Shown here: piece by piece, positions 7,176-49,313 of the stretch
Layout: each line of letters begins with the position of its first letter
Position numbering within the stretch: position 1 is the first letter of the stretch
Virus record (IMG/VR): IMGVR_UViG_3300011113_000415
DNA: 64,000 bases
DNA from: a virus
Lineage: Duplodnaviria; Caudoviricetes
Strand: one strand, 5' to 3'
Translations under genes and position numbers: made by a program
The notes under the pieces: generated by a model
The model's input: the letters and a program-made list of their open reading frames with translations, nothing else
What the model was told of the DNA's origin: nothing
Database searches by the model: none

Positions 7176-9836
7176 ATGAGTTATATTGACGCTTTATTTG
7201 ATCGTGAGCACGATCGTATTCACATTGTAGAACGCCGCAATGGCGAACGAGTATATAGAGAGTATCCTGCTAACTATATTTTTTACTATGATGATCCTAG
7301 AGGCAAGTTCCAAAGTATCTATGGCACACCCGTATCAAGATTTTCTACACGCAACAACAAAGAGTTCCGCAAGGAAGTCCGCGTTCACAGCCACAAGCCG
7401 CTTTATGAAAGCGATATCAACCCAATCTTTAGGTGCCTTGAAGAAAACTACAAAGACCAAGATGCGCCTGAACTTCACACAGCGTTTTTTGACATTGAGG
7501 TGGCGTTTGATCAAGATCGCGGCTTCTCACCGGTATCAGACCCTTTTAATCCCATTACTGCGATTTCAGTCTATCTCGACTGGTTAGATCAACTGGTAAC
7601 ACTTGCTGTGCCGCCCAAGAGCATGACCTGGGCCACAGCACAGGATCTTGTGGCTGACTTTGAGAACACCATCTTGTTTGAGCAAGAGTCAGAAATGATC
7701 AAGACCTTCTTGGACTTGATTGAAGACGCAGACATTTTGACAGGTTGGAACTCAGAAGGCTATGATATTCCCTACACCATCAACAGAGCCACACGAGTGT
7801 TATCAAAAGATGACACACGACGTTTTTGTTTGTGGAACCAACTGCCCAAGAAGCGCATGTTCGAACGCTTTGGCGCCGAAAACGAAACCTATGACTTGAT
7901 TGGTCGTGTGCATATGGACTATATGCAACTGTATCGCAAATACACTTATGAAGAACGTCACAGTTATAGTTTAGATGCTATCTCAGAATATGAACTGGGT
8001 GAACGCAAGACACAGTTCGAAGGCACACTAGACAGTTTATACAACCAACACTTCCGGACGTTTATTGAATACAATCGTCAAGATACTATGCTTATTGCCA
8101 AGATGGACAAGAAGTTGCGCTTCTTGGAATTGGCCAATGAATTGGCTCACGCCAATACCGTGCTACTGCAAACCACAATGGGAGCGGTGGCTGTAACTGA
8201 ACAGGCAATTATCAATGAAGCACATGAACGTGGAATGGTTGTGCCCAACCGCAAACAAAGACTCACAGACGAAGACACACAGGCGGCAGGTGCCTATGTT
8301 GCTTATCCCAAAAAAGGTGTCCACGAATGGATTGGATCAGTTGACATCAACAGTCTCTATCCCTCGGCTATTCGTGCGCTCAACATGGGGCCAGAAACCA
8401 TTGTAGGACAACTGCGTCCTGTGATGACTGATCGACTGATCAAAGACAACATGGCCAAGGGTCAGAGTTTTGCGGCTGCATGGGAAGGCGTGTTTGCCAG
8501 TTTAGAATATACCTCAGTGTTGAATCAAGAGCGTGGCACAGAGATCACCATAGACTGGCAGTCGGGTGAGGAGACTGTGCATTCAGGTGCTGAAATATGG
8601 CACATGATGTTTGATTCAAATCAACCCTGGATACTCAGTGCCAACGGAACTATCTTTACCTATGAAAAGAAAGGTATCATTCCTGGCTTGCTGGAACGTT
8701 GGTATAGTGAACGCAAAGAACTACAGGCCAAGAAGAAGGATGCAAAAGATGCCAAAGAAATTGCTTTCTGGGACAAACGCCAGTTGGTTAAAAAGATTAA
8801 CCTCAACAGTCTCTACGGGGCTATTCTTAACCCGGGCTGTAGGTTCTTTGACAAACGTATTGGACAGTCAACAACACTTACTGGTCGTTCAATTGCCCGG
8901 CACATGGACGCTCATCTTAATGAGTGTATCACAGGCGAATACGACCATGTGGGCCAAGCAGTTATATATGGTGACACAGACTCGTGTTATTTCAGTGCGT
9001 GGCCGGTCCTCAAGAAAGAAGTCGAAGAAGGCAGGATGGCGTGGTCGAAAGAAGCGTGTATTCAACTGTATGACAGCCTTGCTGAACAAGTCAACGAAAG
9101 TTTCCCAGCCTTCATGGAACAGGCATTCCATTGTCCCCGAGACATGGGTTCACTGATCAAGTGCGGTCGTGAAACTGTTGCGGATCGTGGATTGTTCATT
9201 ACCAAGAAGCGTTATGCTGTGAATGCCATCGACATTGAAGGCAAACGACTGGACGTGAATGGCTCAATCGGCAAGACCAAGGCCACAGGGCTTGACCTTA
9301 AACGCTCAGATACGCCCAAAGTTATTCAAGAGTTCCTGTTAGAAATTCTAAATAAACTACTATCTGGTGCAGGTCGAGATGAGATTGTGGAACGTATTCG
9401 TGCGTTCAAGTATGAGTTTATGGAGCGTCCAGGTTGGGAGAAAGGATCACCCAAGCGTGTGAACAATTTGACCAAGTATGGTGCTGAAGAAGCCAGACTG
9501 GGCAAAGCCAACATGCCAGGACATGTGCGAGCCGCACTGAACTGGAATCAGATGAAAAAAATGAATGGGGACAACTACTCAATGCAGATTGTGGATGGTA
9601 TGAAAACTATTGTGTGCAAACTCAAAAGCAATGCACTTGGGTGGACCAGCATTGGCTATCCCACAGATGAGCAACGTCTGCCCACTTGGTTCACTGAACT
9701 ACCATTTGATGATGGCCTTATGGAAGCAACCGTAGTAGATCAAAAGGTTGACAACTTGTTGGGCGTGTTGGATTGGGATCTTGCAAGTGCAACCAACACA
9801 GAAAACACATTTACTAATTTGTTTGAATTCGAATGA
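7176..9836 (+). CDS. polB: Family B DNA polymerase (T4 gp43-like)
   Basis: Exonuclease DIEV, WNSEGYD; polymerase DINSLYPS, KINLNSLYG, YGDTDS, KKRY. Confidence 0.97.
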   Translation: MSYIDALFDREHDRIHIVERRNGERVYREYPANYIFYYDDPRGKFQSIYGTPVSRFSTRNNKEFRKEVRVHSHKPLYESDINPIFRCLEENYKDQDAPELHTAFFDIEVAFDQDRGFSPVSDPFNPITAISVYLDWLDQLVTLAVPPKSMTWATAQDLVADFENTILFEQESEMIKTFLDLIEDADILTGWNSEGYDIPYTINRATRVLSKDDTRRFCLWNQLPKKRMFERFGAENETYDLIGRVHMDYMQLYRKYTYEERHSYSLDAISEYELGERKTQFEGTLDSLYNQHFRTFIEYNRQDTMLIAKMDKKLRFLELANELAHANTVLLQTTMGAVAVTEQAIINEAHERGMVVPNRKQRLTDEDTQAAGAYVAYPKKGVHEWIGSVDINSLYPSAIRALNMGPETIVGQLRPVMTDRLIKDNMAKGQSFAAAWEGVFASLEYTSVLNQERGTEITIDWQSGEETVHSGAEIWHMMFDSNQPWILSANGTIFTYEKKGIIPGLLERWYSERKELQAKKKDAKDAKEIAFWDKRQLVKKINLNSLYGAILNPGCRFFDKRIGQSTTLTGRSIARHMDAHLNECITGEYDHVGQAVIYGDTDSCYFSAWPVLKKEVEEGRMAWSKEACIQLYDSLAEQVNESFPAFMEQAFHCPRDMGSLIKCGRETVADRGLFITKKRYAVNAIDIEGKRLDVNGSIGKTKATGLDLKRSDTPKVIQEFLLEILNKLLSGAGRDEIVERIRAFKYEFMERPGWEKGSPKRVNNLTKYGAEEARLGKANMPGHVRAALNWNQMKKMNGDNYSMQIVDGMKTIVCKLKSNALGWTSIGYPTDEQRLPTWFTELPFDDGLMEATVVDQKVDNLLGVLDWDLASATNTENTFTNLFEFE

Positions 9837-35535: not shown

Positions 35536-36075
35536 ATGAAAACTGTAGGCGATAAGTTAACCCCGTTTGCTGTCACTGGCGTCCGTCCTGGACAACCCGA
35601 AGACGCTTTTTATACCATTACCGACGAATCATTTGAAGGCAAGTGGAAAGTGATTGTGTACTATCCCAAAGACTTCACATTCGTTTGCCCCACCGAGATT
35701 GTGGCCTATGACAAGTTGGCTGATGACTTTGCTGACCGTGATGCAGTATTGCTAACAGGATCAACAGACAACGAGTTCTGCAAAGTGGCATGGCAAAAAT
35801 CGCATGATGACCTGCGCAAGATCACACATCATCAGTTTGCTGATACACAGCGTGGCGAGTTATCATTGATTGAACAACTGGGCGTGTTCTATGCGCCAGC
35901 AGGTGCCGCACTTCGTGCAACATTCATTGTTGATCCCAACAACGAAATCCAACACGTTACTGTCAACAACTTGAATGTTGGTCGCTCACCAGAAGAAACA
36001 CTCCGTGTGTTAGACGCTCTACAAACAGGCGAACTGTGTGCATGTAACCGTACAGTTGGTGGCGAAACCCTGTGA
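35536..36075 (+). CDS. ahpC: Peroxiredoxin AhpC
   Basis: YYPKDFTFVCPTEI; GELCACN. Confidence 0.93.
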   Translation: MKTVGDKLTPFAVTGVRPGQPEDAFYTITDESFEGKWKVIVYYPKDFTFVCPTEIVAYDKLADDFADRDAVLLTGSTDNEFCKVAWQKSHDDLRKITHHQFADTQRGELSLIEQLGVFYAPAGAALRATFIVDPNNEIQHVTVNNLNVGRSPEETLRVLDALQTGELCACNRTVGGETL

Positions 36076-36254
36076 AGATAAACTTCTTTAGTCGCGGCGT
36101 AGAAACTCTACGCCAACCTGATCGCAAACCTAGATGTTATGAACTAACCGAGCAAGAACGTCTGGACAAGATTCGTGAATGGAACAATCGTAATGTTTGG
36201 AACACTCCTGAGTTGGCTGAACAAGACCTTGAGTCCACTTATTACGGAGCATAA
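36072..36254 (+). CDS. Hypothetical protein
   Basis: 60 aa, GTGA overlap. Confidence 0.45.
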   Translation: MKINFFSRGVETLRQPDRKPRCYELTEQERLDKIREWNNRNVWNTPELAEQDLESTYYGA

Positions 36255-36256
36255 TC

Positions 36257-36910
36257 ATGTTAGAAACCATTTGCGAAACATTGGTAGAAGCCTATCGTAG
36301 AAACTGGATTACCAGTCGTGATGGCAATGTCAGTATCCGTCATCACGACCGTGATCACTTTTATATCACCCCGTCGGGTGTGCGCAAGCAGACCATGCAA
36401 CCAGATCAGTTTAAGAAGATACGATTGGTCAACAGCATCAGTGCCACACCTCCGTTCTTGACACAGTCATGGCAAGAAGATGACTATACTGACATCAGTA
36501 GCAATCTAAAGCCTAGTGGTGAGATACCCTTGCACTTTGGTTTACAGCGAGCCATGGGCCAACATGCCAATGATGTGCGTGTGGTAGTACACTTGCATCC
36601 TACCTATTGTGTGGCGGCCATGCATGCTGGTATTGATTTGTCAACTATTGTGAATGACTTTCCTGAACTGAGTCGTTACACAAGGGTGGCGCCCAATGTG
36701 GGCGATGTGCCGCCTATCAGTCAAGAACTTGCAGATCGTTGTCACCAAAATCTACAACTGGATTCCGCGGGTAACATTGCCTACGATATTGTGGGCATCA
36801 AAGGTCACGGGGTGGTGGCCATTGATACCAGTCCCTGGCGTGCATTTGAGCATATAGAGAGGTTGGAACATATTTCAAAAATTGTATTATCATCAAGGAG
36901 ATTTCAATGA
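36257..36910 (+). CDS. Class II aldolase/adducin-family protein
   Basis: DGNVSIR, PSGEIPLH, HLHP, GHGVVA. Confidence 0.85.
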   Translation: MLETICETLVEAYRRNWITSRDGNVSIRHHDRDHFYITPSGVRKQTMQPDQFKKIRLVNSISATPPFLTQSWQEDDYTDISSNLKPSGEIPLHFGLQRAMGQHANDVRVVVHLHPTYCVAAMHAGIDLSTIVNDFPELSRYTRVAPNVGDVPPISQELADRCHQNLQLDSAGNIAYDIVGIKGHGVVAIDTSPWRAFEHIERLEHISKIVLSSRRFQ

Positions 36911-37422
36911 CAGCATGGGTTGATCAACTCAAAGAAGGCCTGCCCGAGTATGCCAAAGATACAAAGTTAAACTTGGACGCTGTGATCAAGCGTGGCACCA
37001 TTGATCCAGAACAAGCAGAAGCCATTGCCTTGGCGGCGGCTTTTGCTACAGGCAATGGTAAATTGGTCTCATTCATTCAAAGCAACGTTGCCAATGGGGT
37101 AGAGCGTGATGCGGCACTCACAGCCGGTTCAATCATGTCAATGAACAATACTTGGTATCCTTACGTTGAAATGGCGGAAGATCCTGCACTCAAAGGCTTG
37201 CCAGCACAACTTAGAATGAATGCCATTGCCACACACGGTGGTACTACAAAGGCTCGTTTTGAAGCCTACAGTCTAGCCGCTTCAATAATAGGCAAGTGCC
37301 ATTTCTGTGTCAAAGCACATTATGATACCTTGAAAAAGGAAGGCTACTCAGTTGAACAACTGAGAGACATTGGTCGTATTGCGTCTGTGATTGCCAGCGT
37401 TGCTCGTGTGCTGAACAGTTGA
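36907..37422 (+). CDS. ahpD: Alkylhydroperoxidase AhpD
   Basis: MNNTWYP; CHFCVKAH. Confidence 0.9.
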   Translation: MTAWVDQLKEGLPEYAKDTKLNLDAVIKRGTIDPEQAEAIALAAAFATGNGKLVSFIQSNVANGVERDAALTAGSIMSMNNTWYPYVEMAEDPALKGLPAQLRMNAIATHGGTTKARFEAYSLAASIIGKCHFCVKAHYDTLKKEGYSVEQLRDIGRIASVIASVARVLNS

Positions 37423-37661
37423 GCAAGCGGCAAAACCAGTTGACCGGTGTTGGTTATTGAAACTGTTGCGAAGCACTTCACACTGAATCAAGGTCTCAAC
37501 GGGTCTTGATTCTTTGATCAAGGCATGATCGGCAGTGAAAATAAACAAAGTCAATATGTATTCCATATGATTATATATCCTACTAAACGTTGGAAATTGT
37601 GTTGTTTGTTATACAGAGTTCTTGGATTAATATAACCTGCAAAACTAATACTTTTGTGTTA

Positions 37662-37690
37662 TTGACCCAAATTGGATCCTGTGTTATAAT
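37662..37690 (+). promoter_or_regulatory. Sigma70 promoter
   Basis: TTGACC-17-TATAAT. Confidence 0.75.
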
Positions 37691-37707
37691 TACAAACTAA
37701 GGAGAAT

Positions 37708-38178
37708 GTGATGCCATGGATCGAAAATGTAGCCGCCGCAGATGTGCCCCAAAGGCATCATCACGAGGCTGGCGACAATGCCATGCTGATCCAGATCATG
37801 GATCCGTGTCCCACCTGGTGGCCCGCTCCTGCACACAACTTTCGAGAAACACATCGTTTTGAATTTTTGGATGCAGAAGATGGTGATCGTTTTCCTGAAG
37901 AATGTTTGATCAGCGATGCCCAGGCTGAAAAAATTGTAGGCCTGTTGCAACATGCCTTGGCCAATCGCATGAACGTGGTTGTGCATTGTGTGGCAGGATT
38001 GTGTCGCTCAGGTGCAGTGGCTGAAGTTGGCGTGATGATGGGCTTTGATGAGTGTGAACGCACTCGCATACCCAACATTAGAGTCAAGCATAGGTTGATG
38101 AAGGCCTTGGGCTGGACCTATGATGCGAATGAACAGCCAGATGCAGAAGCCTGGCGTAAGATGAACCTAGATTATTAA
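37708..38178 (+). CDS. Dual-specificity/tyrosine phosphatase-like protein
   Basis: HCxxGxxRS: VHCVAGLCRSG. Confidence 0.8.
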   Translation: MMPWIENVAAADVPQRHHHEAGDNAMLIQIMDPCPTWWPAPAHNFRETHRFEFLDAEDGDRFPEECLISDAQAEKIVGLLQHALANRMNVVVHCVAGLCRSGAVAEVGVMMGFDECERTRIPNIRVKHRLMKALGWTYDANEQPDAEAWRKMNLDY

Positions 38179-38188
38179 GGAGGCAATA

Positions 38189-38794
38189 ATGCCCGCAGTA
38201 TTTTTGACAAGCGACACGCACTTTGGACACGCAGGTGTCTGTCGCTTCACGCACCCAGATGATCCTGAAGTGAAATTGCGTCCCTGGACTGATCCAGACG
38301 AGATGGATGAGGCAATGATCAAGAAATGGAACGAACGTGTTCGTCCCAACGACAAGGTCTATCACTTGGGCGATGTTGTGATCAATCGCAAGGCTTTGAA
38401 GACCTTGGCACGTTTGAACGGCGACAAGGTGTTGATCCGTGGCAACCACGACATCTTTAGAGATGACGAGTATCGTGAATACTTTCGTGAATTGCGAGCC
38501 TACCATGTGATGAACGGCATGATCTTGAGTCACATTCCTGTGCATGAGGCTTCGTTGGGTCGCTTTGGAGTTAACATTCACGGACACTTGCATGCCACTC
38601 GTGTGAAAAAAGCACGTGGGGTTGACGCCAAGACCGGAACTGTTTTGTACAGCACTGAAATTGACCCACGCTACCATTGCGTGTGTGTGGAGCAAACTGA
38701 CTTTGCACCCATCTTGTTTGAAGATGTTATCAAACGGATTGAAGCAGAAGGTGGTAAAGTTGGCTTTCAAAATGGCAATGGACCCACAATGTAG
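38189..38794 (+). CDS. Calcineurin-like metallophosphoesterase
   Basis: SDTHFGH, HLGDV, GNHD, HGHLH. Confidence 0.88.
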   Translation: MPAVFLTSDTHFGHAGVCRFTHPDDPEVKLRPWTDPDEMDEAMIKKWNERVRPNDKVYHLGDVVINRKALKTLARLNGDKVLIRGNHDIFRDDEYREYFRELRAYHVMNGMILSHIPVHEASLGRFGVNIHGHLHATRVKKARGVDAKTGTVLYSTEIDPRYHCVCVEQTDFAPILFEDVIKRIEAEGGKVGFQNGNGPTM

Positions 38795-38797
38795 GGG

Positions 38798-38826
38798 TTG
38801 ACAAGGTATAAATAAACCTGTATAAT
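38798..38826 (+). promoter_or_regulatory. Consensus sigma70 promoter, with TATAAATA in the spacer, heading the tRNA array
   Basis: TTGACA-17-TATAAT. Confidence 0.85.
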
Positions 38827-38835
38827 TAGCACATT

Positions 38836-38973
38836 ATGAAAACATTTGGACCTTATTCGTTATCAGTCCGTCCACAGAGTCTGGGCACATGCCCCGCCTT
38901 GTGGTCCACGATTGAGAACATGCATAATGGTCGTGAACTAGATCACAACAGGGTCCAAGGAGATCGGGAGTAG
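38836..38973 (+). CDS. Putative attenuator leader peptide (45 aa, near-leaderless)
   Basis: MKTFGPYSLSVRPQSLGTCPALWSTIENMHNGRELDHNRVQGDRE*; ends just before terminator and contains the antiterminator arm. Confidence 0.5.
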   Translation: MKTFGPYSLSVRPQSLGTCPALWSTIENMHNGRELDHNRVQGDRE

Positions 38974-38998
38974 GTCAATACATACTCCAACTTCGAAG

Positions 38999-39028
38999 AC
39001 CCTGGAACTCGAAACTCCAGGGTTTTTT
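38999..39028 (+). terminator. Intrinsic terminator (attenuator)
   Basis: ACCCTGGA/TCCAGGGT 8-bp stem followed by TTTTT; 5' arm can instead pair with CAGGGTC at 38949-38955. Confidence 0.8.
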
Positions 39029-39047
39029 ATTTTTAAAAAAGGAAAAA

Positions 39048-39203
39048 ATGACAGATACAAAATGTAAACGTCAGGCAGAGTACACGCGACAACACACACT
39101 AACTGAAGCAGATCTTCGCAGAATGATGGCAGAAAAATTAGAACGTGCTCGAGCGTGGCATAATGCCATGATCAAGCGACGAGTTCTTCAAGAGAACCGT
39201 TGA
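39048..39203 (+). CDS. Small basic hypothetical protein (51 aa)
   Basis: AAAGGA RBS; MTDTKCKRQ...RVLQENR. Confidence 0.5.
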   Translation: MTDTKCKRQAEYTRQHTLTEADLRRMMAEKLERARAWHNAMIKRRVLQENR

Positions 39204-39408
39204 TTCATGTAGTGGCGACAGGAAACGAGATCCTGCAACACACTTTAAACAGTTGCAAATGGGCGGCCTCGGGGATGGATTATCTTCTTGTAGACAAAAA
39301 AATCCGAGCGTATCGAAGCACTTTATCCTTCGGCTCTCTAGCACAAGGGCTAGAGCAAGGTAACCATAGAGTGCTTCGATACACGCATTCACAAGAGTGT
39401 GTTTATAT

Positions 39409-39486
39409 GCCCCTATGGACAAATTGGTAAAGTCATCTCTCTCAAAAGGAGAAGTCGTCTCTGTTCGAATCAGAGTAGGGGTACCA
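39409..39486 (+). tRNA. tRNA-Leu(CAA), short variable loop
   Basis: Loop CTCAAAA; CCA encoded. Confidence 0.85.
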
Positions 39487-39490
39487 TCAT

Positions 39491-39582
39491 GGAAGATGAT
39501 GCAGGTGGGATGGTCCGCCGACGAGCCTTGAAAACTCGGTTCCGAGAAATCGGATGGGGTTCGACTCCTCCGTCTTCCGCCA
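39491..39582 (+). tRNA. tRNA-Ser(TGA)
   Basis: Loop CTTGAAA, long variable arm, G73, CCA. Confidence 0.9.
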
Positions 39583-39587
39583 ATTGT

Positions 39588-39664
39588 TGGGGATTCGCCA
39601 AGTTGGTTAAGGCATCGGATTTTGATTCCGACATGCATAGGTTCGAATCCTATATCCCCTACCA
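39588..39664 (+). tRNA. tRNA-Gln(TTG)
   Basis: Loop TTTTGAT; CCA. Confidence 0.9.
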
Positions 39665-39669
39665 AATTT

Positions 39670-40860
39670 TCAAACGTAAGGTTTGATCAATTCGTAAAAC
39701 TCAGGAAACGTAGATTCAAAAGACTGGTCGCGCATGCGATCTAAATCTTTTGTCATGTGCCAAAACCATTCCCAAGCATTTACATCATAGGATATGTATT
39801 CAGGTATACTTTGCATCATGAAATTAACTGTGGCAGTATCTTGAAGTATTTTTTCAGCGACTATTTTTTTCAATGACATTGGCATGTGTCGTATATCATA
39901 CTCAGGTGGACTGTAGACAAAATTACAGCCTACTATTATTCCAAATTTTGCTAAATTTTTTTTGATTTCATCAATATAAAATACATTTAGTGGTGTGACT
40001 GTGACACAGATGTTAATTTCTGTGTTGGGATGATTTGCGGTCCAGTCTTTGTAGCGTTGCAGATTTTCAAATACCACGTTAGCGTCAACTGGATATCTAA
40101 TATATTCAAGATGTTTGTGGACATGACTGTCTATGCTAATTCCAATTTTTACATATTTGTATTTGACCAGTGTGTCTAGATATGCTGGGTTCCATATTGT
40201 AGCATTGGTATGAAGTCTTAAACTAACTTTGGAACTCTTGCCAGCATCGGCCACTGTTTTTAATACACGAAACAACCCAGGTGTTAGGAATGGCTCACCA
40301 CCGTATATATCAAAAAACTCCAAGTTTGGTAACCATTGCTCCGTAGTCTCCCATATGGGATTATCTCTATCAAATGCAGATCTTATGCTTTCAAATCGTT
40401 TGGTATACTCTTGTTGTGTGCCTTTAAATCCATCGTGTTCTATCGCAAATTGATAGGCATTGTTATACCAACCTGTACTAGTGGCCGGATTGCACATTCT
40501 ACAGGCAAGATTACAAACGTTGCCAGGTTTCATAATCAGCACACGAGGCTGATCAGGCAATGACTCAAGATGACCAAACATGTGGTTGAATCGCTGTCTA
40601 CTACTGATTTTTCCACTGGCTTCTAGGTCCTGGCAAGGTCTGCAACTTTCAATGGTTTTTCCGTGGTCTAATCCAGCAGCCAACATTTTTCTAGTGGGAC
40701 TAGACCAGGCTTCAGCCAAGGTATTTTTGTCAGCAAACAGCACCTGTTGTTGACGATTGGTAAAACTCCAATTGTTTATGTTGCAGGCACAGAAGTCACC
40801 ATCGTTTTGAATGGCCAGGCCCATATGTGGCATCACACAAAAAGTGTCAGATTTAAGCAT
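39670..40860 (-). CDS. Radical SAM protein (SPASM/twitch-associated type), antisense inside the tRNA array
   Basis: CNLACRMC; N-terminal FCVMP...C...C motif; YGGEPF; HTNAT. Confidence 0.85.
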   Translation of the reverse strand: MLKSDTFCVMPHMGLAIQNDGDFCACNINNWSFTNRQQQVLFADKNTLAEAWSSPTRKMLAAGLDHGKTIESCRPCQDLEASGKISSRQRFNHMFGHLESLPDQPRVLIMKPGNVCNLACRMCNPATSTGWYNNAYQFAIEHDGFKGTQQEYTKRFESIRSAFDRDNPIWETTEQWLPNLEFFDIYGGEPFLTPGLFRVLKTVADAGKSSKVSLRLHTNATIWNPAYLDTLVKYKYVKIGISIDSHVHKHLEYIRYPVDANVVFENLQRYKDWTANHPNTEINICVTVTPLNVFYIDEIKKNLAKFGIIVGCNFVYSPPEYDIRHMPMSLKKIVAEKILQDTATVNFMMQSIPEYISYDVNAWEWFWHMTKDLDRMRDQSFESTFPEFYELIKPYV

Positions 40861-41975: not shown

Positions 41976-42050
41976 TGCCCCTTTAGTTTAAAAGTAAAAC
42001 AGACGCTTGATAAGCGTCAGTCGGAGGAGCGTTACCTCCCGGGGGTACCA
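41976..42050 (+). tRNA. tRNA-Ile(GAT), non-canonical T-loop
   Basis: Loop TTGATAA; T-loop AGCGTTA; CCA. Confidence 0.82.
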
Positions 42051-42987: not shown

Positions 42988-44223
42988 ATGCTTACAAAAA
43001 ACATCTATTTACTGTATCCAGCAGGTTATTCAGGCAACTTCATCAAATGGGCCATTAGTGCCAGTGACATAGATTTGCAAAAAATCACAGTCAATGACCC
43101 TATAAACAAAACGTTTAGTCACAAATACGGTGGGCCCGGGACAACACATTTAGAGGACAGAGTACCCACACATCAAGACATTTATAGGCATCTTATTTGG
43201 ATGGCATACAATCGTCCGGTAGCCAATCAAATCTATATACTTTTTACAACTTCACAATCAATGAGTCAAACCTTAGACGGAATTTTGAGCACAGATCCTG
43301 ATCCATTGATTATTATCATACATGACAACAGAGATAGAGACACAAGAACCTACGGAAATTTAAATGCTATAACCAAATGGCCTACCTACATGCACACTAG
43401 ACAAACTCTTTGGAACTTTGAAAAACAATCAAGATTAGAATACAGTTTGATGACAAATCATGACTTTTTCAATTGTGAAAATGATATGAATTTGAGAAAT
43501 ATGATTGCTCTGAAGAGTTTTGCATGGCTAGTAGAACTTGATCCGTTTGACGATCAGTCAAAAAATCAATACCTTGAGGATTTGTTAAAAAATAAACTTT
43601 GGTTTGATACGAGACAGCAATATCAACCACATGAATTGCTGCCGCACATGTATGCGGTACATGAAGCACTGCCAAATAATGCAGTTCATCAACTGAGTTG
43701 TAAAGATGTGGTCAGTGAAAATTTTCCAAATATTTTATATGATATTTTAAAGACCAGTGGTTGTTGTAGTGAATTTGATATATCACCAGTCAAACAGATA
43801 CATGAAAAGTATATCTCTGCTCAGAAAAATTTAGATTGGTTCTCTTCAATTGCGCATTGGAGAAAAACTGGTTATCTTGATCAATACCTAGTAAGTCATG
43901 CAGTCATTCAAGGCTTTGTAATTCAAGAAATTTTAGAAAAGTTGAAATTCATTGATTACATCAAGTTTGATCCACATTACAAATGGTACGATTTTTATCA
44001 GGCTGTTCGTGACCAGGGTTGGCCGGATTGTGATCAAGAAAAAGATTTTTTGACATTGCCTTTACATATTAGAGAAGAATTAATTACAAAATTTAATTAC
44101 AAATTTGAACCTATACAGGTACAAAATAATCAAATTTTAAAAGCATTAGAAAATTGGGAATCAATGTCTATACAAGAAATCAATGATTTGTATCTACAAA
44201 GTGATGTTTGGTCTATTTATTAA
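42988..44223 (+). CDS. AT-rich hypothetical protein (sulfotransferase-like N-terminus)
   Basis: YPAGYSGNFIKW; YQAVRDQGWPDC motif. Confidence 0.55.
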   Translation: MLTKNIYLLYPAGYSGNFIKWAISASDIDLQKITVNDPINKTFSHKYGGPGTTHLEDRVPTHQDIYRHLIWMAYNRPVANQIYILFTTSQSMSQTLDGILSTDPDPLIIIIHDNRDRDTRTYGNLNAITKWPTYMHTRQTLWNFEKQSRLEYSLMTNHDFFNCENDMNLRNMIALKSFAWLVELDPFDDQSKNQYLEDLLKNKLWFDTRQQYQPHELLPHMYAVHEALPNNAVHQLSCKDVVSENFPNILYDILKTSGCCSEFDISPVKQIHEKYISAQKNLDWFSSIAHWRKTGYLDQYLVSHAVIQGFVIQEILEKLKFIDYIKFDPHYKWYDFYQAVRDQGWPDCDQEKDFLTLPLHIREELITKFNYKFEPIQVQNNQILKALENWESMSIQEINDLYLQSDVWSIY

Positions 44224-45065: not shown

Positions 45066-45094
45066 TTGACACATAATTAAATATTGTATATAAT
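45066..45094 (+). promoter_or_regulatory. Consensus sigma70 promoter
   Basis: TTGACA-17-TATAAT. Confidence 0.8.
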
Positions 45095-45109: not shown

Positions 45110-45187
45110 GCAACGGTGGCAGAGTGGTCCAATGCATGGGATTGCAAATCCCAAAAACCGCTGGTTCAAATCCAGCCCGTTGCTCCA
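45110..45187 (+). tRNA. tRNA-Cys(GCA)
   Basis: Loop TTGCAAA; U73; CCA. Confidence 0.92.
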
Positions 45188-45190
45188 TAC

Positions 45191-45430
45191 GTTCCAGCGT
45201 CACTGGATAGTCCGACCCAGACGATGAGAAGTGCAATGACATGCACGGGTGGTTCTGAAGAGGCGAATCTTCACAGTAGAGATACTGCGGTCCAACCAAA
45301 CCGGCGTTAGCAACACGAGAGCGGTCCCTGTCGGGAAGCGGGTGGAGGGTGTAAGTGATGAATAGACTAGTTGGGGCAACTTGACGAAATTTCTGATACA
45401 CTATAATTACCGCCGGGGGACGTCAGAGCA
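45191..45430 (+). ncRNA. Candidate multi-branched ncRNA (~240 nt, unassigned)
   Basis: Hairpins TCCAG/CTGGA, GTGCA/TGCAC, TGAAG/CTTCA, CAGTA/TACTG; long-range CCGAC/GTCGG and GTGTA/TACAC. Confidence 0.5.
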
Positions 45431-45439
45431 ATCAAATAC

Positions 45440-45514
45440 CGCGGGATGGAGAAGCGGTAACTCGTCAGGCTCATAACCTGAAGATCGGCGGTTCGATTCC
45501 GCCTCCCGCAACCA
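45440..45514 (+). tRNA. Initiator tRNA-fMet(CAT)
   Basis: C1:A72 mismatch; loop CTCATAA; CCA. Confidence 0.9.
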
Positions 45515-45596: not shown

Positions 45597-45845
45597 ATGC
45601 TAGATTATATCATTACTTTTGTTGCTGTGTTTGCTACTGATTTGATTTACATTCTTTTTGTAAAGTCAATTCAGGACAACCAGCCTTGGCGTGCCGCATG
45701 GTGGTCAATGGTTTGTACACTCACAGCCTCAGTGGCCGTGATCAACTACATTGAAAATCATTGGGCCTTGATTCCGGCCCTGGCAGGTGCATTCTTCGGT
45801 GCCTATGTAGGCATGAAGTACAAGAAAAAAATCATCTCCGATTAG
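45597..45845 (+). CDS. Small membrane protein (stop codon inside tRNA-Pro)
   Basis: Three TM segments; ends KKKIISD*. Confidence 0.6.
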   Translation: MLDYIITFVAVFATDLIYILFVKSIQDNQPWRAAWWSMVCTLTASVAVINYIENHWALIPALAGAFFGAYVGMKYKKKIISD

Positions 45846-45911
45846 TATAGCCTGGTAGTACCCGTGGTTTGGGACCATGAAGCGGGAGTTCAAATCTCTC
45901 ATCGGAGACCA
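45836..45911 (+). tRNA. tRNA-Pro(TGG)
   Basis: Loop TTTGGGA; CCA. Confidence 0.9.
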
Positions 45912-46181: not shown

Positions 46182-46649
46182 ATGAAAAAACTTGACCTAG
46201 ACCAAGTGAAAAATTATATACGGGCACAAACGCCCCAAACTGCTGTGTATCTTGGTTGCGACAGTGAACGTGTGAAAGTTCGCGGACGCTGGTATGCTGA
46301 CTATGCTTTGGCCATTGTGGTTCACATTGACAGTTGCCATGGTTGCAAAATCTTTGGCGAAGTTCAAAGAGAACTGGACTGGGATCAACGAAGTGATCGT
46401 CCCAGCATGAGACTCATGAACGAAGTATACAAAGTGGGTGACCTTTTTCAGAGTCTGGCAGATGTGTTGGAAGATAGATTGGTTGAAGTACACCTTGACA
46501 TCAATCCTGATCAAATGTACAAGTCAAGCATGGTGATCAATCAGGCCATTGGCTATATCAAAGGCACCTGCAATGTTACTCCCATGGTCAAGCCACTCTC
46601 TTTCGCGGCAAGTTACGCGGCGGACCGTTTACTTGTAGTTAACGGTTAG
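46182..46649 (+). CDS. RNase H-like YkuK/DUF458-family protein
   Basis: YLGCDS, RLMNEV, EVHLDIN, SFAASYAADR; TATAAATA upstream. Confidence 0.7.
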   Translation: MKKLDLDQVKNYIRAQTPQTAVYLGCDSERVKVRGRWYADYALAIVVHIDSCHGCKIFGEVQRELDWDQRSDRPSMRLMNEVYKVGDLFQSLADVLEDRLVEVHLDINPDQMYKSSMVINQAIGYIKGTCNVTPMVKPLSFAASYAADRLLVVNG

Positions 46650-46717: not shown

Positions 46718-46746
46718 TTGACAACACACACAGTTTGTTGTATAAT
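46718..46746 (+). promoter_or_regulatory. Consensus sigma70 promoter
   Basis: TTGACA-17-TATAAT. Confidence 0.8.
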
Positions 46747-47200: not shown

Positions 47201-47902
47201 TTACTTGACTGTGGCCAATCCAAGGTTCCGAAGAATACAAATGTACATCCAACCTATGTCAAACTCCCACCAGTTTCTACTGAGGCGAGCACTGGCTGGA
47301 TCCAAGTGGTGGTTGTTGTGTAGTTCTTCGCCACCAATCACGATACCCCAGGGACTGATATTTCTACTGAGATCTCGGGTTTCTCCATTTCTATAGCCCC
47401 ACCAGTGTGCTAGACCGTTGACGACACCAGCGGCCCAGAACGGTATCCATATTATCTGTATGAGCCAAATTATGGCGCCAACCCAACCAAAGAGCCAGAG
47501 GTTGAACACAAGGCAAATGCCAAGCCCAAGTCCGGAGTGAGGAGTGTATATGTTACGCTCCAACCAGTCACTAGGAGTGCCACGACCATATGTATCAACC
47601 ATGTCCGTATCTTTTGCGGCTTCATTGTATAACCATGCTCCTCGAAACAAAACTTGCCAGATTCCATACACATGTGGACTGTGCGGATCACCTGCCCGAT
47701 CACTGTATCTATGATGCTTGCGGTGTATGGCCACCCATTGCTTTGTGACCATGCCTGTTGTGAGCCACAGCCAGGTTCGCATGAAGTGTTCTATTAGGGG
47801 ATGAAATGTCACAGATCGGTGTGCTTGTGATCTATGCAAATACAGTGTGACGCAGGCTATGGTGATGTGTGTGGCGATTAAAGTGTATAGGAGTTCTGTC
47901 AT
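47201..47902 (-). CDS. Membrane fatty-acid (delta-9-type) desaturase
   Basis: Three His boxes HRSQAH, HRKHH, HNNHH. Confidence 0.92.
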   Translation of the reverse strand: MTELLYTLIATHITIACVTLYLHRSQAHRSVTFHPLIEHFMRTWLWLTTGMVTKQWVAIHRKHHRYSDRAGDPHSPHVYGIWQVLFRGAWLYNEAAKDTDMVDTYGRGTPSDWLERNIYTPHSGLGLGICLVFNLWLFGWVGAIIWLIQIIWIPFWAAGVVNGLAHWWGYRNGETRDLSRNISPWGIVIGGEELHNNHHLDPASARLSRNWWEFDIGWMYICILRNLGLATVK

Positions 47903-47991: not shown

Positions 47992-48067
47992 GCCCCTTAA
48001 ACTAATCTAGTGAAAGTGCGGGACTGAAAATCCCGAAAGCCAGGAGCGTAACCTGGAGGGGGCACCA
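47992..48067 (+). tRNA. tRNA-Phe(GAA), non-canonical T-loop
   Basis: Loop CTGAAAA; T-loop AGCGTAA; CCA. Confidence 0.82.
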
Positions 48068-48472: not shown

Positions 48473-48655
48473 ATGACCCGGACCTTGATTTGGGTGTTAT
48501 CGTTTAGTGTGCTGGGCCCTGTACCCGAAAGCGGAGAACTGGCCAAGTACAAAACTCAAGCAGAATGCGAACAAGCAAAAATTCAAAAACGCGAAGAGTA
48601 TCAGGCTCAGAAAAAACGCATTGTGGCCAGTTGTCATCCCAGCACCAAAGGTTGA
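48473..48655 (+). CDS. Small hypothetical protein
   Basis: Signal-like N-terminus; two Cys. Confidence 0.5.
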   Translation: MTRTLIWVLSFSVLGPVPESGELAKYKTQAECEQAKIQKREEYQAQKKRIVASCHPSTKG

Positions 48656-48680
48656 CAAACAATCAAAATAAATATATAAT
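48652..48680 (+). promoter_or_regulatory. Consensus sigma70 promoter of the permuted tmRNA gene
   Basis: TTGACA-17-TATAAT. Confidence 0.85.
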
Positions 48681-48686
48681 ACTGAG

Positions 48687-48751
48687 AACAGCGTAAACTG
48701 CGATTCAGAAAAGGATTCAAGACGGCGGGGCAGTGCCGCCCAGGTCCACCA
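48687..48751 (+). ncRNA. ssrA: tmRNA acceptor piece (permuted two-piece ssrA, transcribed first)
   Basis: GATTCAA helix-2 strand, GAC, T-arm GGCGG-GGCAGTG-CCGCC, CAGGTCC-A-CCA 3' end; 5' boundary approximate. Confidence 0.88.
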
Positions 48752-48763
48752 TAAGGAAGTTTG

Positions 48764-49132
48764 ATGCGTATTACTGAGATTGCTAATACAAAACTATCAT
48801 TTAAAACAACAAAAGGCAGTAATGCTATTGGTGTTGAAATGAACGTTGACGGGCAATACGCAGGGATGTTTCAATACGATGCAGGTAACGGAAGAAGTTT
48901 AGTAGAGTTAGATCCAGACTTTCAAGGCAAAGGTTTGGGTAAAATTCTAATACTAAAAGAAATCTATACTGCTATCATGTCTGGATTAGACTATGTAGAA
49001 GATGAGTCACGCACCCAAGCATTTGATAATGCTATGAATAGTTTGGCAGACGCTGGTTACATAGTCAATGATGACGAGTATTGGTATGTCACTAGTGAAG
49101 GTGAGCAATATCTCAAACAAGTTTCTTTATGA
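48764..49132 (+). CDS. GNAT-like module encoded in the tmRNA intervening segment
   Basis: AAGGAAG RBS; PDFQGKGLGK; about half of residues identical to the module at 1222-1566; TGA ends 1 nt before the tmRNA 5' end. Confidence 0.8.
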   Translation: MRITEIANTKLSFKTTKGSNAIGVEMNVDGQYAGMFQYDAGNGRSLVELDPDFQGKGLGKILILKEIYTAIMSGLDYVEDESRTQAFDNAMNSLADAGYIVNDDEYWYVTSEGEQYLKQVSL

Positions 49133-49133
49133 T

Positions 49134-49313
49134 GGGCCTGACACAGGATCGATTGGGTCAAGAGTAGGGATAGTGGCGCTCGGTAAGGTAGAAGCCGTTA
49201 GGGTTGGGAGTTCCCAGCCGAAGAAGCAAAAAAAGTAAAGGCAAACGACTCACAGTTCCAATTGGCCGCGTAAAGTAGCCTAGGGTAGGAAATACCTCGT
49301 AACAGAAACCACC
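49134..49313 (+). ncRNA. ssrA: tmRNA coding piece; tag (A)ANDSQFQLAA at 49241-49273
   Basis: 5' GGGCCTG pairs with CAGGTCC (G3:U70); TTGGGTC pairs with GATTCAA; resume codon GCA; 3' boundary approximate. Confidence 0.9.

Follow-up and report, generated by a model that had tools for sequence, protein, structure and literature searches.

What is encoded between the two tRNA genes that lie either side of positions 45188-45432 in the genome of a jumbo phage? The window analysed here is a stretch of 64,000 nucleotides from IMG/VR virus record IMGVR_UViG_3300011113_000415, and the DNA polymerase that it encodes (7176-9836) shares 51% identity with that of Sinorhizobium phage Phosso and 47% with that of Agrobacterium phage Atu_ph07. 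Upstream of the gap is tRNA-Cys(GCA) (45110-45187, + strand; ARAGORN, Rfam and reading of the sequence), whose encoded CCA 3' end abuts the element, while downstream is a tRNA-Met(CAT) (45440-45514, + strand; ARAGORN and Rfam), which reads as initiator-like from its C1.A72 ends. The intervening segment of about 245 nt is a single-copy gene (45188-45432, + strand) for a conserved, structured and pseudoknotted non-coding RNA, which occupies a slot in a tRNA array. A covariance model of the family, R1, matches positions 45192-45432 (186.7 bits, E 6.5e-51, model positions 1-201), and the extension upstream to 45188 is a conserved 5-nt leader that lies outside the R1 start at 45192. A sequence-only reading had placed a GC-rich non-coding RNA, tightly flanked by tRNAs, at 45191-45430. 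Its boundaries were right to within 2-3 nt, its view of the composition is borne out by a GC content of 0.52 compared with 0.37-0.48 in nearby 2-kb windows (the surroundings average about 45%), and tight flanking by tRNAs on the same strand is seen here and in relatives.

The tRNA array to which the gene belongs lies wholly on the + strand, extends over about 34.8-49.3 kb and consists of 24 tRNAs recognised by ARAGORN, two recognised by Rfam only and a permuted tmRNA. The two Rfam-only matches, at 41977-42047 (43.9 bits) and 47992-48064 (43.6 bits), each lie directly 3' of another tRNA and may be unusual or decaying tRNAs. The two-piece tmRNA (48690-49273; RF04321, 80.2 bits) covers 584 nt, compared with 213 positions in the model, pointing to a large intervening segment, and it is preceded by a perfect sigma-70 consensus promoter at 48652-48680. 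This is one of three perfect sigma-70 promoters in the 44-50 kb region, all found within 4 kb (45066-45094, 46718-46746 and 48652-48680), which head tRNA-Cys, tRNA-Ser and the tmRNA, respectively. The first of them (45066-45094, + strand), TTGACA-17-TATAAT with 12/12 matches to the consensus, is situated just before tRNA-Cys. Promoter-like sites number 18 in total, where 9.6 would be expected.

Several protein-coding genes are interspersed with the tRNAs. A 155-residue protein encoded at 46182-46649, inside the array, matches the Pfam RNaseH_like family (PF04308, E 4e-14) and is 60-89% identical across 57 IMG/VR loci; it is also present in many loci that have no match to the element within the stretch examined. 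The protein is a candidate for an enzyme that processes RNA from these tRNA arrays. An 82-residue membrane protein is encoded at 45597-45845 between tRNA-Thr and tRNA-Pro, with a weak match to Phage_holin_9 that falls below the cut-off, and the 3' end of its reading frame overlaps tRNA-Pro (45836-45911) by 10 nt, stop codon included. Around the array (35536-40860 and 47201-47902) are host-like metabolic genes for an AhpC/TSA peroxiredoxin, a class II aldolase, a CMD-family protein, phosphatases and a radical SAM/SPASM enzyme, together with a fatty-acid desaturase on the minus strand. The array is broken by a stretch of 37% GC carrying a 411-residue reading frame (42988-44223) with no Pfam match, and this region may be a mobile insertion.

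The element does not stand out when it is folded as a single sequence. The minimum free energy of a 252-nt segment is -69.2 kcal/mol, compared with -70.4 +/- 4.6 kcal/mol for shuffled sequences (z +0.26; 115 of 200 shuffles fold as well), and the folding energy of the minus strand is likewise unremarkable. When the whole window was compared with Rfam 15 at gathering thresholds, only tRNAs and the tmRNA were found. Thus, with folding at the level of chance and no Rfam family to which it can be referred, the case for the element rests on conservation and covariation in its homologues. Chance-level folding would also be expected if there were no functional RNA here at all, the gap being spacer, the remains of tRNA genes or a small protein gene, and some stop-free frame does run across the element in 29 of 100 family members. 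These frames are, however, mostly on the minus strand, each of the three phases is represented (by 38, 29 and 19 members), and the lengths of insertions are not multiples of three; the element is therefore not a protein gene. No match to the tRNA model falls inside it, which speaks against decayed tRNAs, and the strong covariation described below leaves the idea of a non-functional sequence with a negligible probability.

Relatives were initially drawn from IMG/VR contigs gathered by means of the RNaseH_like protein and exact DNA words, and the element was detected in 12 of these by blastn and nhmmer. A near-invariant 17-mer, GTCGGGRAGCGGGTGGA, taken from the region of the invariant strand GUCGGGAAGCG, was used as a search pattern and matched at least 120 IMG/VR viral contigs, with full-length copies of 160-266 nt (mode 186-187 nt) in 117 of them according to nhmmer. 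Members of the family are 169-276 nt long, and pairwise identity between them descends to 56%. Each of 100 loci, this window included, holds exactly one R1 match. Among five complete genomes of 331-525 kb, there is one copy in each of four (331-353 kb) and two copies in the 525-kb genome.

Two alignments of these sequences were compared: A2, made with MAFFT from 99 distinct copies, and A3, made from 100 copies on the basis of the R1 model. In A3, standard base pairs occupy 98.2% of 4,355 pair cells, compared with 82.1% when partners are shuffled and 36-50% when they are slid by 1-3 columns. Compensatory changes, in which both sides of a pair have mutated, occur in 29 of the 44 pairs, and none of 500 shuffles reaches the observed value of any of five measures. 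A2, which was not fitted to the model, agrees (94.9% paired, 80.4% when shuffled), and the column pairs with the highest corrected mutual information are exactly the helix pairs. The fold is preserved through compensatory mutations across the family. The sequence-only reading had named a collection of homologues as a check on its structured RNA, and the 100 assembled here do share a conserved, covarying structure. The direction of transcription is also evident from the pairs, 566 of 3,900 helix cells being G.U; on the opposite strand these become C.A and pairing drops from 98% to 83.5%. This drop indicates that the RNA is read from the strand of the tRNAs.

Conservation of the core is high, with 78 of 198 columns (about 40%) at least 97% conserved, and the near-invariant positions cluster in five strands: GAUGAGAAGU, CGGGUGGU, GAGAACGG, UGUCGGGAAGCGGGUGGA and UAUAAUUACCGCCG...CAGAGCA. 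The family fold is made up of five hairpins in the 5' part (P1-P5), a loop-to-strand pseudoknot (PK1), a long-range helix (P6) and a variable arm (P7). The copy in this window carries all of the family helices P1-P7 and PK1, with single non-standard pairs in P2 (C.A) and at the base of P4 (G.G). It contains eight local hairpins (P1, P2, P3, Pa, Pb, P4, P5 and the P7 arm), the long-range pairings P6 and P6b, and one pseudoknot. At least four local hairpins and two long-range pairings had been anticipated from the sequence, and both counts hold. The description of the RNA as multi-branched survives only in part, in that two extra hairpins, Pa and Pb, are inserted before P4 in this subtype.

Reading along the + strand, the 5' leader UACGU (45188-45192), which corresponds to RAACG plus U in the family, follows directly upon the CCA of tRNA-Cys. 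P1 (45193-45207) pairs UCCAG at 45193-97 with CUGGA at 45203-07, with compensatory changes in 5/5 pairs and 96% of cells paired. P2 (45210-45222) pairs GUCC at 45210-13 with AGAC at 45219-22, including the C.A already mentioned; three of its four pairs show compensatory changes and 99.5% of cells are paired. Its loop, GACCC, supplies the 5' strand of PK1, in which ACCC (45215-45218) pairs with GGGU (45247-45250). PK1 is likewise 99.5% paired, with A-U replaced by G-C in three members, and in the divergent member L162 it reads as GGUCC with GGACC. Between P2 and P3 is the near-invariant purine strand J2/3, GAUGAGAA (45223-45230), whose columns are invariant or 90% conserved. P3 (45231-45246) consists of GUGCA (45231-35) and UGCAC (45242-46) closed by the loop AUGACA, with four of five pairs compensatory, and includes the top mutual-information pairs. 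Two further tertiary pairings were considered and rejected. For a second pseudoknot between GGU, which follows PK1, and ACC in the P4 loop, both strands are invariant and, by reading, L162 gives no support; for pairing of GACA in L3 with UGUC, L3 varies while GUC is invariant.

The insertion that characterises this subtype (45252-45287), which most members lack, consists of the strand GUUCU (45252-56) and the hairpins Pa (GAAGA/UCUUC, 45257-45272) and Pb (CAGUA/UACUG, 45274-45287), of which Pa shows compensatory changes within the subtype. Pairing of GUUCU (45252-56) with AGAGC (45425-29) is predicted by RNAalifold in this subtype only and, since the GUUCU strand is missing in most members, it is not a general feature. 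P4 (45288-45303; CGGU at 45288-91, ACCG at 45300-03) has a conserved loop, AACC.AA, and compensatory changes in four of five pairs. P5 (45305-45317; CGU at 45305-07, ACG at 45315-17) encloses a 7-nt loop, UAGCAAC, and one of its pairs is CG in 70 members and UA in 29. The last base of this loop, C45314, forms a lone tertiary pair with G45321 that covaries in the family (UA 91, CG 8). J5/6 (45318-45323) reads AGAGCG here and GAGAACG in the family.

The 3' domain is closed by P6, in which GUCCCU (45324-45329) pairs with GGGGAC (45416-45421); it is 100% paired and five of its six pairs are compensatory. A local CCC-UGUC-GGG hairpin, which would be an alternative to P6, is not kept while P6 covaries. 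Within the domain, the invariant strand GUCGGGAAGCG (45330-45340) leads into a predicted helix, P6b, formed by GGUGG (45341-45345) and CCGCC (45410-45414). None of its five pairs ever varies, so that covariation neither supports nor refutes it. The variable P7 arm (45348-45402), with compensatory changes in five of six stem pairs, takes the form of a kink-turn in this copy: a stem GGUGUA/UACACU, a 3-nt bulge AGU, G.A/A.G pairs drawn from GAUGA and CUGA (45393-96), and a distal variable hairpin. The layout is the canonical one known from archaeal box C/D sRNAs and from SAM-I, lysine and T-box leaders, and it explains the weak box C/D look-alike matches, in which box C/D models score 12-16 bits on the element against cut-offs of 45-60. 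The kink-turn signature is present in 68 of 100 members and missing in 32, however, and the length of the arm varies between 2 and 70 nt, one member having an arm of only 2 nt; unlike in the modules just named, it is thus a peripheral part of the RNA.

J7/6b (45403-45409) is an invariant AUAAUUA, which with the preceding U gives a -10-like UAUAAU with no conserved -35. A possible internal promoter here, TTGACG-15-TATAAT (45381-45409), was rejected, its spacer being too short and its -35 not conserved in the family. The 3' tail (45422-45432) includes the invariant CAGAGCA (45424-45430). An AGARC motif occurs three times per member, in the leader RAACG (45188-45192), in J5/6 GAGAACG (45318-45323) and in the tail CAGAGCA (45424-45430), the first two copies lying just 5' of helix strands that begin UCC (P1 and P6). 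The repeat could reflect an internal duplication or a recurring recognition site. The invariant AUUACCGC (45406-45413) exactly complements GCGGUAAU of the universal 530 loop of 16S rRNA, in the region of the primers 515F/534R. Chance alone would give about 1.7 matches of this length somewhere in a 16S rRNA, and this is a curiosity only.

The sequence-only reading had been unable to assign the RNA to a known family, and the Infernal/Rfam comparison that has since been run is in accord, with no match to the element in Rfam 15. With E values of up to 10 allowed on 45150-45470, the best non-tRNA matches score 11.7-16.4 bits, compared with cut-offs of 43-90, and four other family members likewise match no family. 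The most conservative interpretation of a structured RNA in such a setting would be a highly diverged or reduced housekeeping RNA, whether RNase P RNA, SRP/4.5S, 6S or Y RNA, a piece of tmRNA or a T-box. That these phages also carry a tmRNA is in keeping with this, as are short strings that, by reading, look like SRP helix 8 and a T-box. Set against the absence of any Rfam match to this copy or to four further ones, even with E values of up to 10 allowed, this idea is very improbable, and the five complete carrier genomes contain no rnpA, L7Ae, TROVE (Ro60) or Ffh M domain (SRP_SPB). RNase P RNA was rejected on the grounds that no RNaseP model matches, that none of the five carriers has rnpA, that there is no P4-type pseudoknot (the sole pseudoknot being PK1), and that the CR-I and CR-V strings are missing from the sequence.

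The likeness to SRP RNA lies in GGUCC...GGAAGC, which we take, by reading, to resemble helix 8. Instead, GUCCCU in this stretch covaries with the distant GGGGAC as part of P6, and the GGG with which it would have to pair locally is the same in every member; the loop reads UGUC rather than GNRA, no SRP model matches, and there is no Ffh M domain in the five carriers. Similarly, GGGUGG...ACCGC(C) presumably recalls a T-box sequence, although no T-box model matches, and GGGUGG and ACCGCC are separated by the entire P7 arm and predicted to pair with each other. The element does not lie upstream of aminoacyl-tRNA synthetase or amino-acid genes; its neighbours are tRNA genes of many identities. For Y RNA/YrlA there is no match on the element, a 23-bit match in member L129 falling on a tRNA, and no TROVE protein in five carriers. 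The tmRNA, for its part, is a separate gene at 48690-49273.

GOLLD (RF01998) and ROOL (RF03087) are complex pseudoknotted RNAs, of unknown function, that are often found by tRNA genes in phages and prophages. The element resembles them in being a complex pseudoknotted RNA next to phage tRNA genes. It had been set apart from them at the outset as much shorter, rightly so: there is no match to RF01998, RF02032 or RF03087, and a family of 169-276 nt compares with some 500-800 nt, which makes the element three to four times shorter, and it is found in one clade of uncultured jumbo phages only. manA (RF01745), which is likewise pseudoknotted, has no proven function and comes from aquatic phages and metagenomes; it is found upstream of protein genes and is not known from tRNA arrays. 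The element is like it in being a pseudoknotted RNA of aquatic phages, but sits inside tRNA arrays, and five family members gave no match to manA at E up to 10. By organisation, the closest known counterparts are the species 1 and species 2 RNAs of T4 (rnaC and rnaD), whose genes similarly abut a tRNA on the same strand; in the T4 annotation these small stable RNAs come directly after tRNA-Arg, share the strand of the tRNAs and are separated from their neighbours by 1-6 nt. Both mature together with the tRNAs, and neither has a known function. At 139 and 119 nt they differ in size from the element family (about 190-275 nt), we know of no pseudoknot or kink-turn in either, and an R1 search of the whole T4 genome returned no match at E up to 1.

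Beyond IMG/VR, a blastn search with the element against 50,697 deposited phage genomes gave no match, and an R1 search of the cultured phages Phosso, Atu_ph07, Vibrio phage 2.275.O (a jumbo phage), XbC2 and T4 gave no credible match (best E 0.7). In 185,579 prokaryote genomes (596 Gb), the 17-mer GTCGGGRAGCGGGTGGA has 120 matches, compared with about 140 expected by chance, and 119 of these cover roughly the seed region only (19-80 model positions, nhmmer E 0.005-9). The sole true copy, L286, is on a phage contig binned in a MAG and is accompanied by phage tRNAs and a tmRNA. In L286 and another relative, L001, the tmRNA encodes the tag ANDEQFALAA, which we take to look betaproteobacterial, a hint at the host. 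As far as the searched databases extend, the family is confined to uncultured jumbo phages related to Atu_ph07 and Phosso. It is an uncatalogued RNA family, with no Rfam entry and no literature match to its core strings; no paper was found with these strings, and the family may be numbered in a 2023 catalogue of 8,495 IMG/VR candidate RNAs (PMC10690425).

Within the arrays, the tRNAs that neighbour the element in the 100 loci are all on its strand, while their identities vary, with 11 upstream and 17 downstream. Thus the element moves around the array in the manner of a tRNA gene. The ends of the mature RNA were deduced from conservation boundaries and tRNA positions. In 62 of 100 members the model start is preceded, at a distance of 4-7 nt (mode 5), by an encoded CCA, and the leader between the two is itself conserved (RAACG), with C at -2 in 96% and G at -1 in 84%, also in members that have no preceding tRNA. 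Taken together, the position of the CCA and the conservation of the leader show that the conserved RNA starts at the first base after the CCA. At the other end, a downstream tRNA begins 0-8 nt after the model end in 39 of 100 members. An adjacent upstream tRNA is missing in about one-third of members and an adjacent downstream tRNA in about 60%, so that tRNA processing cannot be the only route by which the ends are formed.

A conserved sequence that begins exactly after an encoded CCA in 62 of 100 members, and keeps its leader where no tRNA precedes it, might reflect a new ribozyme acting on the tRNA precursor. It could, for example, self-cleave at its own 5' edge, directly after the upstream CCA, as HDV-like ribozymes do, and a pseudoknotted core in which some 40% of positions are near-invariant, concentrated in junctions, would suit such an activity. 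Host nucleases are, however, enough to account for the processing, the RNA resembles no self-cleaving ribozyme family in Rfam, and no convincing pairing between leader and core was found, all of which makes a ribozyme improbable. A shade less probable again is the specific proposal that the invariant pseudoknotted core belongs to a new ribozyme, or to a catalytic RNA directed at tRNA, and cuts the precursor exactly at the CCA/leader junction. Were it true, jumbo phages would mature the 3' ends of their own tRNAs independently of host nucleases.

It can also be asked whether the RNA acts in cis on the transcripts in which it lies, by processive antitermination (put/EAR-like), in a riboswitch-like manner, or as a processing or insulator module for neighbouring tRNAs. 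The element is always inside tRNA transcription units and on the tRNA strand, it is here the second unit after a perfect promoter, a U-rich tract follows it in 43 of 100 members, and the invariant GGGUGG, which by reading is present twice, could in principle swap partners. Its relation to promoters is not fixed, however, a match of at least 10/12 within 400 nt upstream being found in only 30 of 95 members, and there is no conserved terminator hairpin by the U tract in the family. Moreover, the downstream neighbours vary and about half of them are more than 100 nt away, and the CCC-UGUC-GGG hairpin that might have served as the alternative structure is not kept when P6 covaries. A cis-acting element of the tRNA operon is therefore unlikely, if less so than a ribozyme.

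The reading that we favour, and consider probable though far from secure as a whole, is of a stable, structured RNA that is excised from a tRNA precursor, acts in trans and binds a partner, likely in translation or the metabolism of tRNAs. Co-transcription of tRNA-Cys, the element, tRNA-fMet and tRNA-Thr would start from the consensus promoter (45066-45094), and host tRNA-maturation nucleases would then free the RNA, in line with the release through processing of the flanking tRNAs that the sequence-only reading had proposed. An endonucleolytic cut directly after the upstream CCA would generate its 5' end, and a 7-nt trailer would stay on it once RNase P had cleaved at the start of tRNA-fMet. 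After excision, the stable and compact RNA may work in trans, with the invariant strands of its junctions offering a surface to which a particular protein or RNA could bind. Covarying helices arranged around near-invariant junctions are typical of RNAs with a specific binding partner or a catalytic activity. Because of the surrounding gene island, we favour a role in binding or as a scaffold, most plausibly in translation or in the metabolism of tRNAs during infection. Antisense targets of the invariant strands within the 64-kb window are at or below the number expected by chance.

Pseudoknotted RNAs of large size and high conservation that have no known function are rare, and earlier examples have proved to be ribozymes, riboswitches or the cores of ribonucleoproteins. 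For this family, the secondary structure has been tested, a covariance model works in searches, and about 100 variants from nature are available, among them the short-arm L077 of 169 nt; together these provide a basis for biochemistry without a cultured phage. The element is embedded in an island of translation-related genes, comprising tRNAs and a tmRNA. Collectively, its occurrence as a single copy in four of five complete genomes, its near-invariant junctions and its place in the translation island of a clade of freshwater phages of 330-525 kb argue for an involvement of this RNA in the takeover or protection of translation by giant phages.
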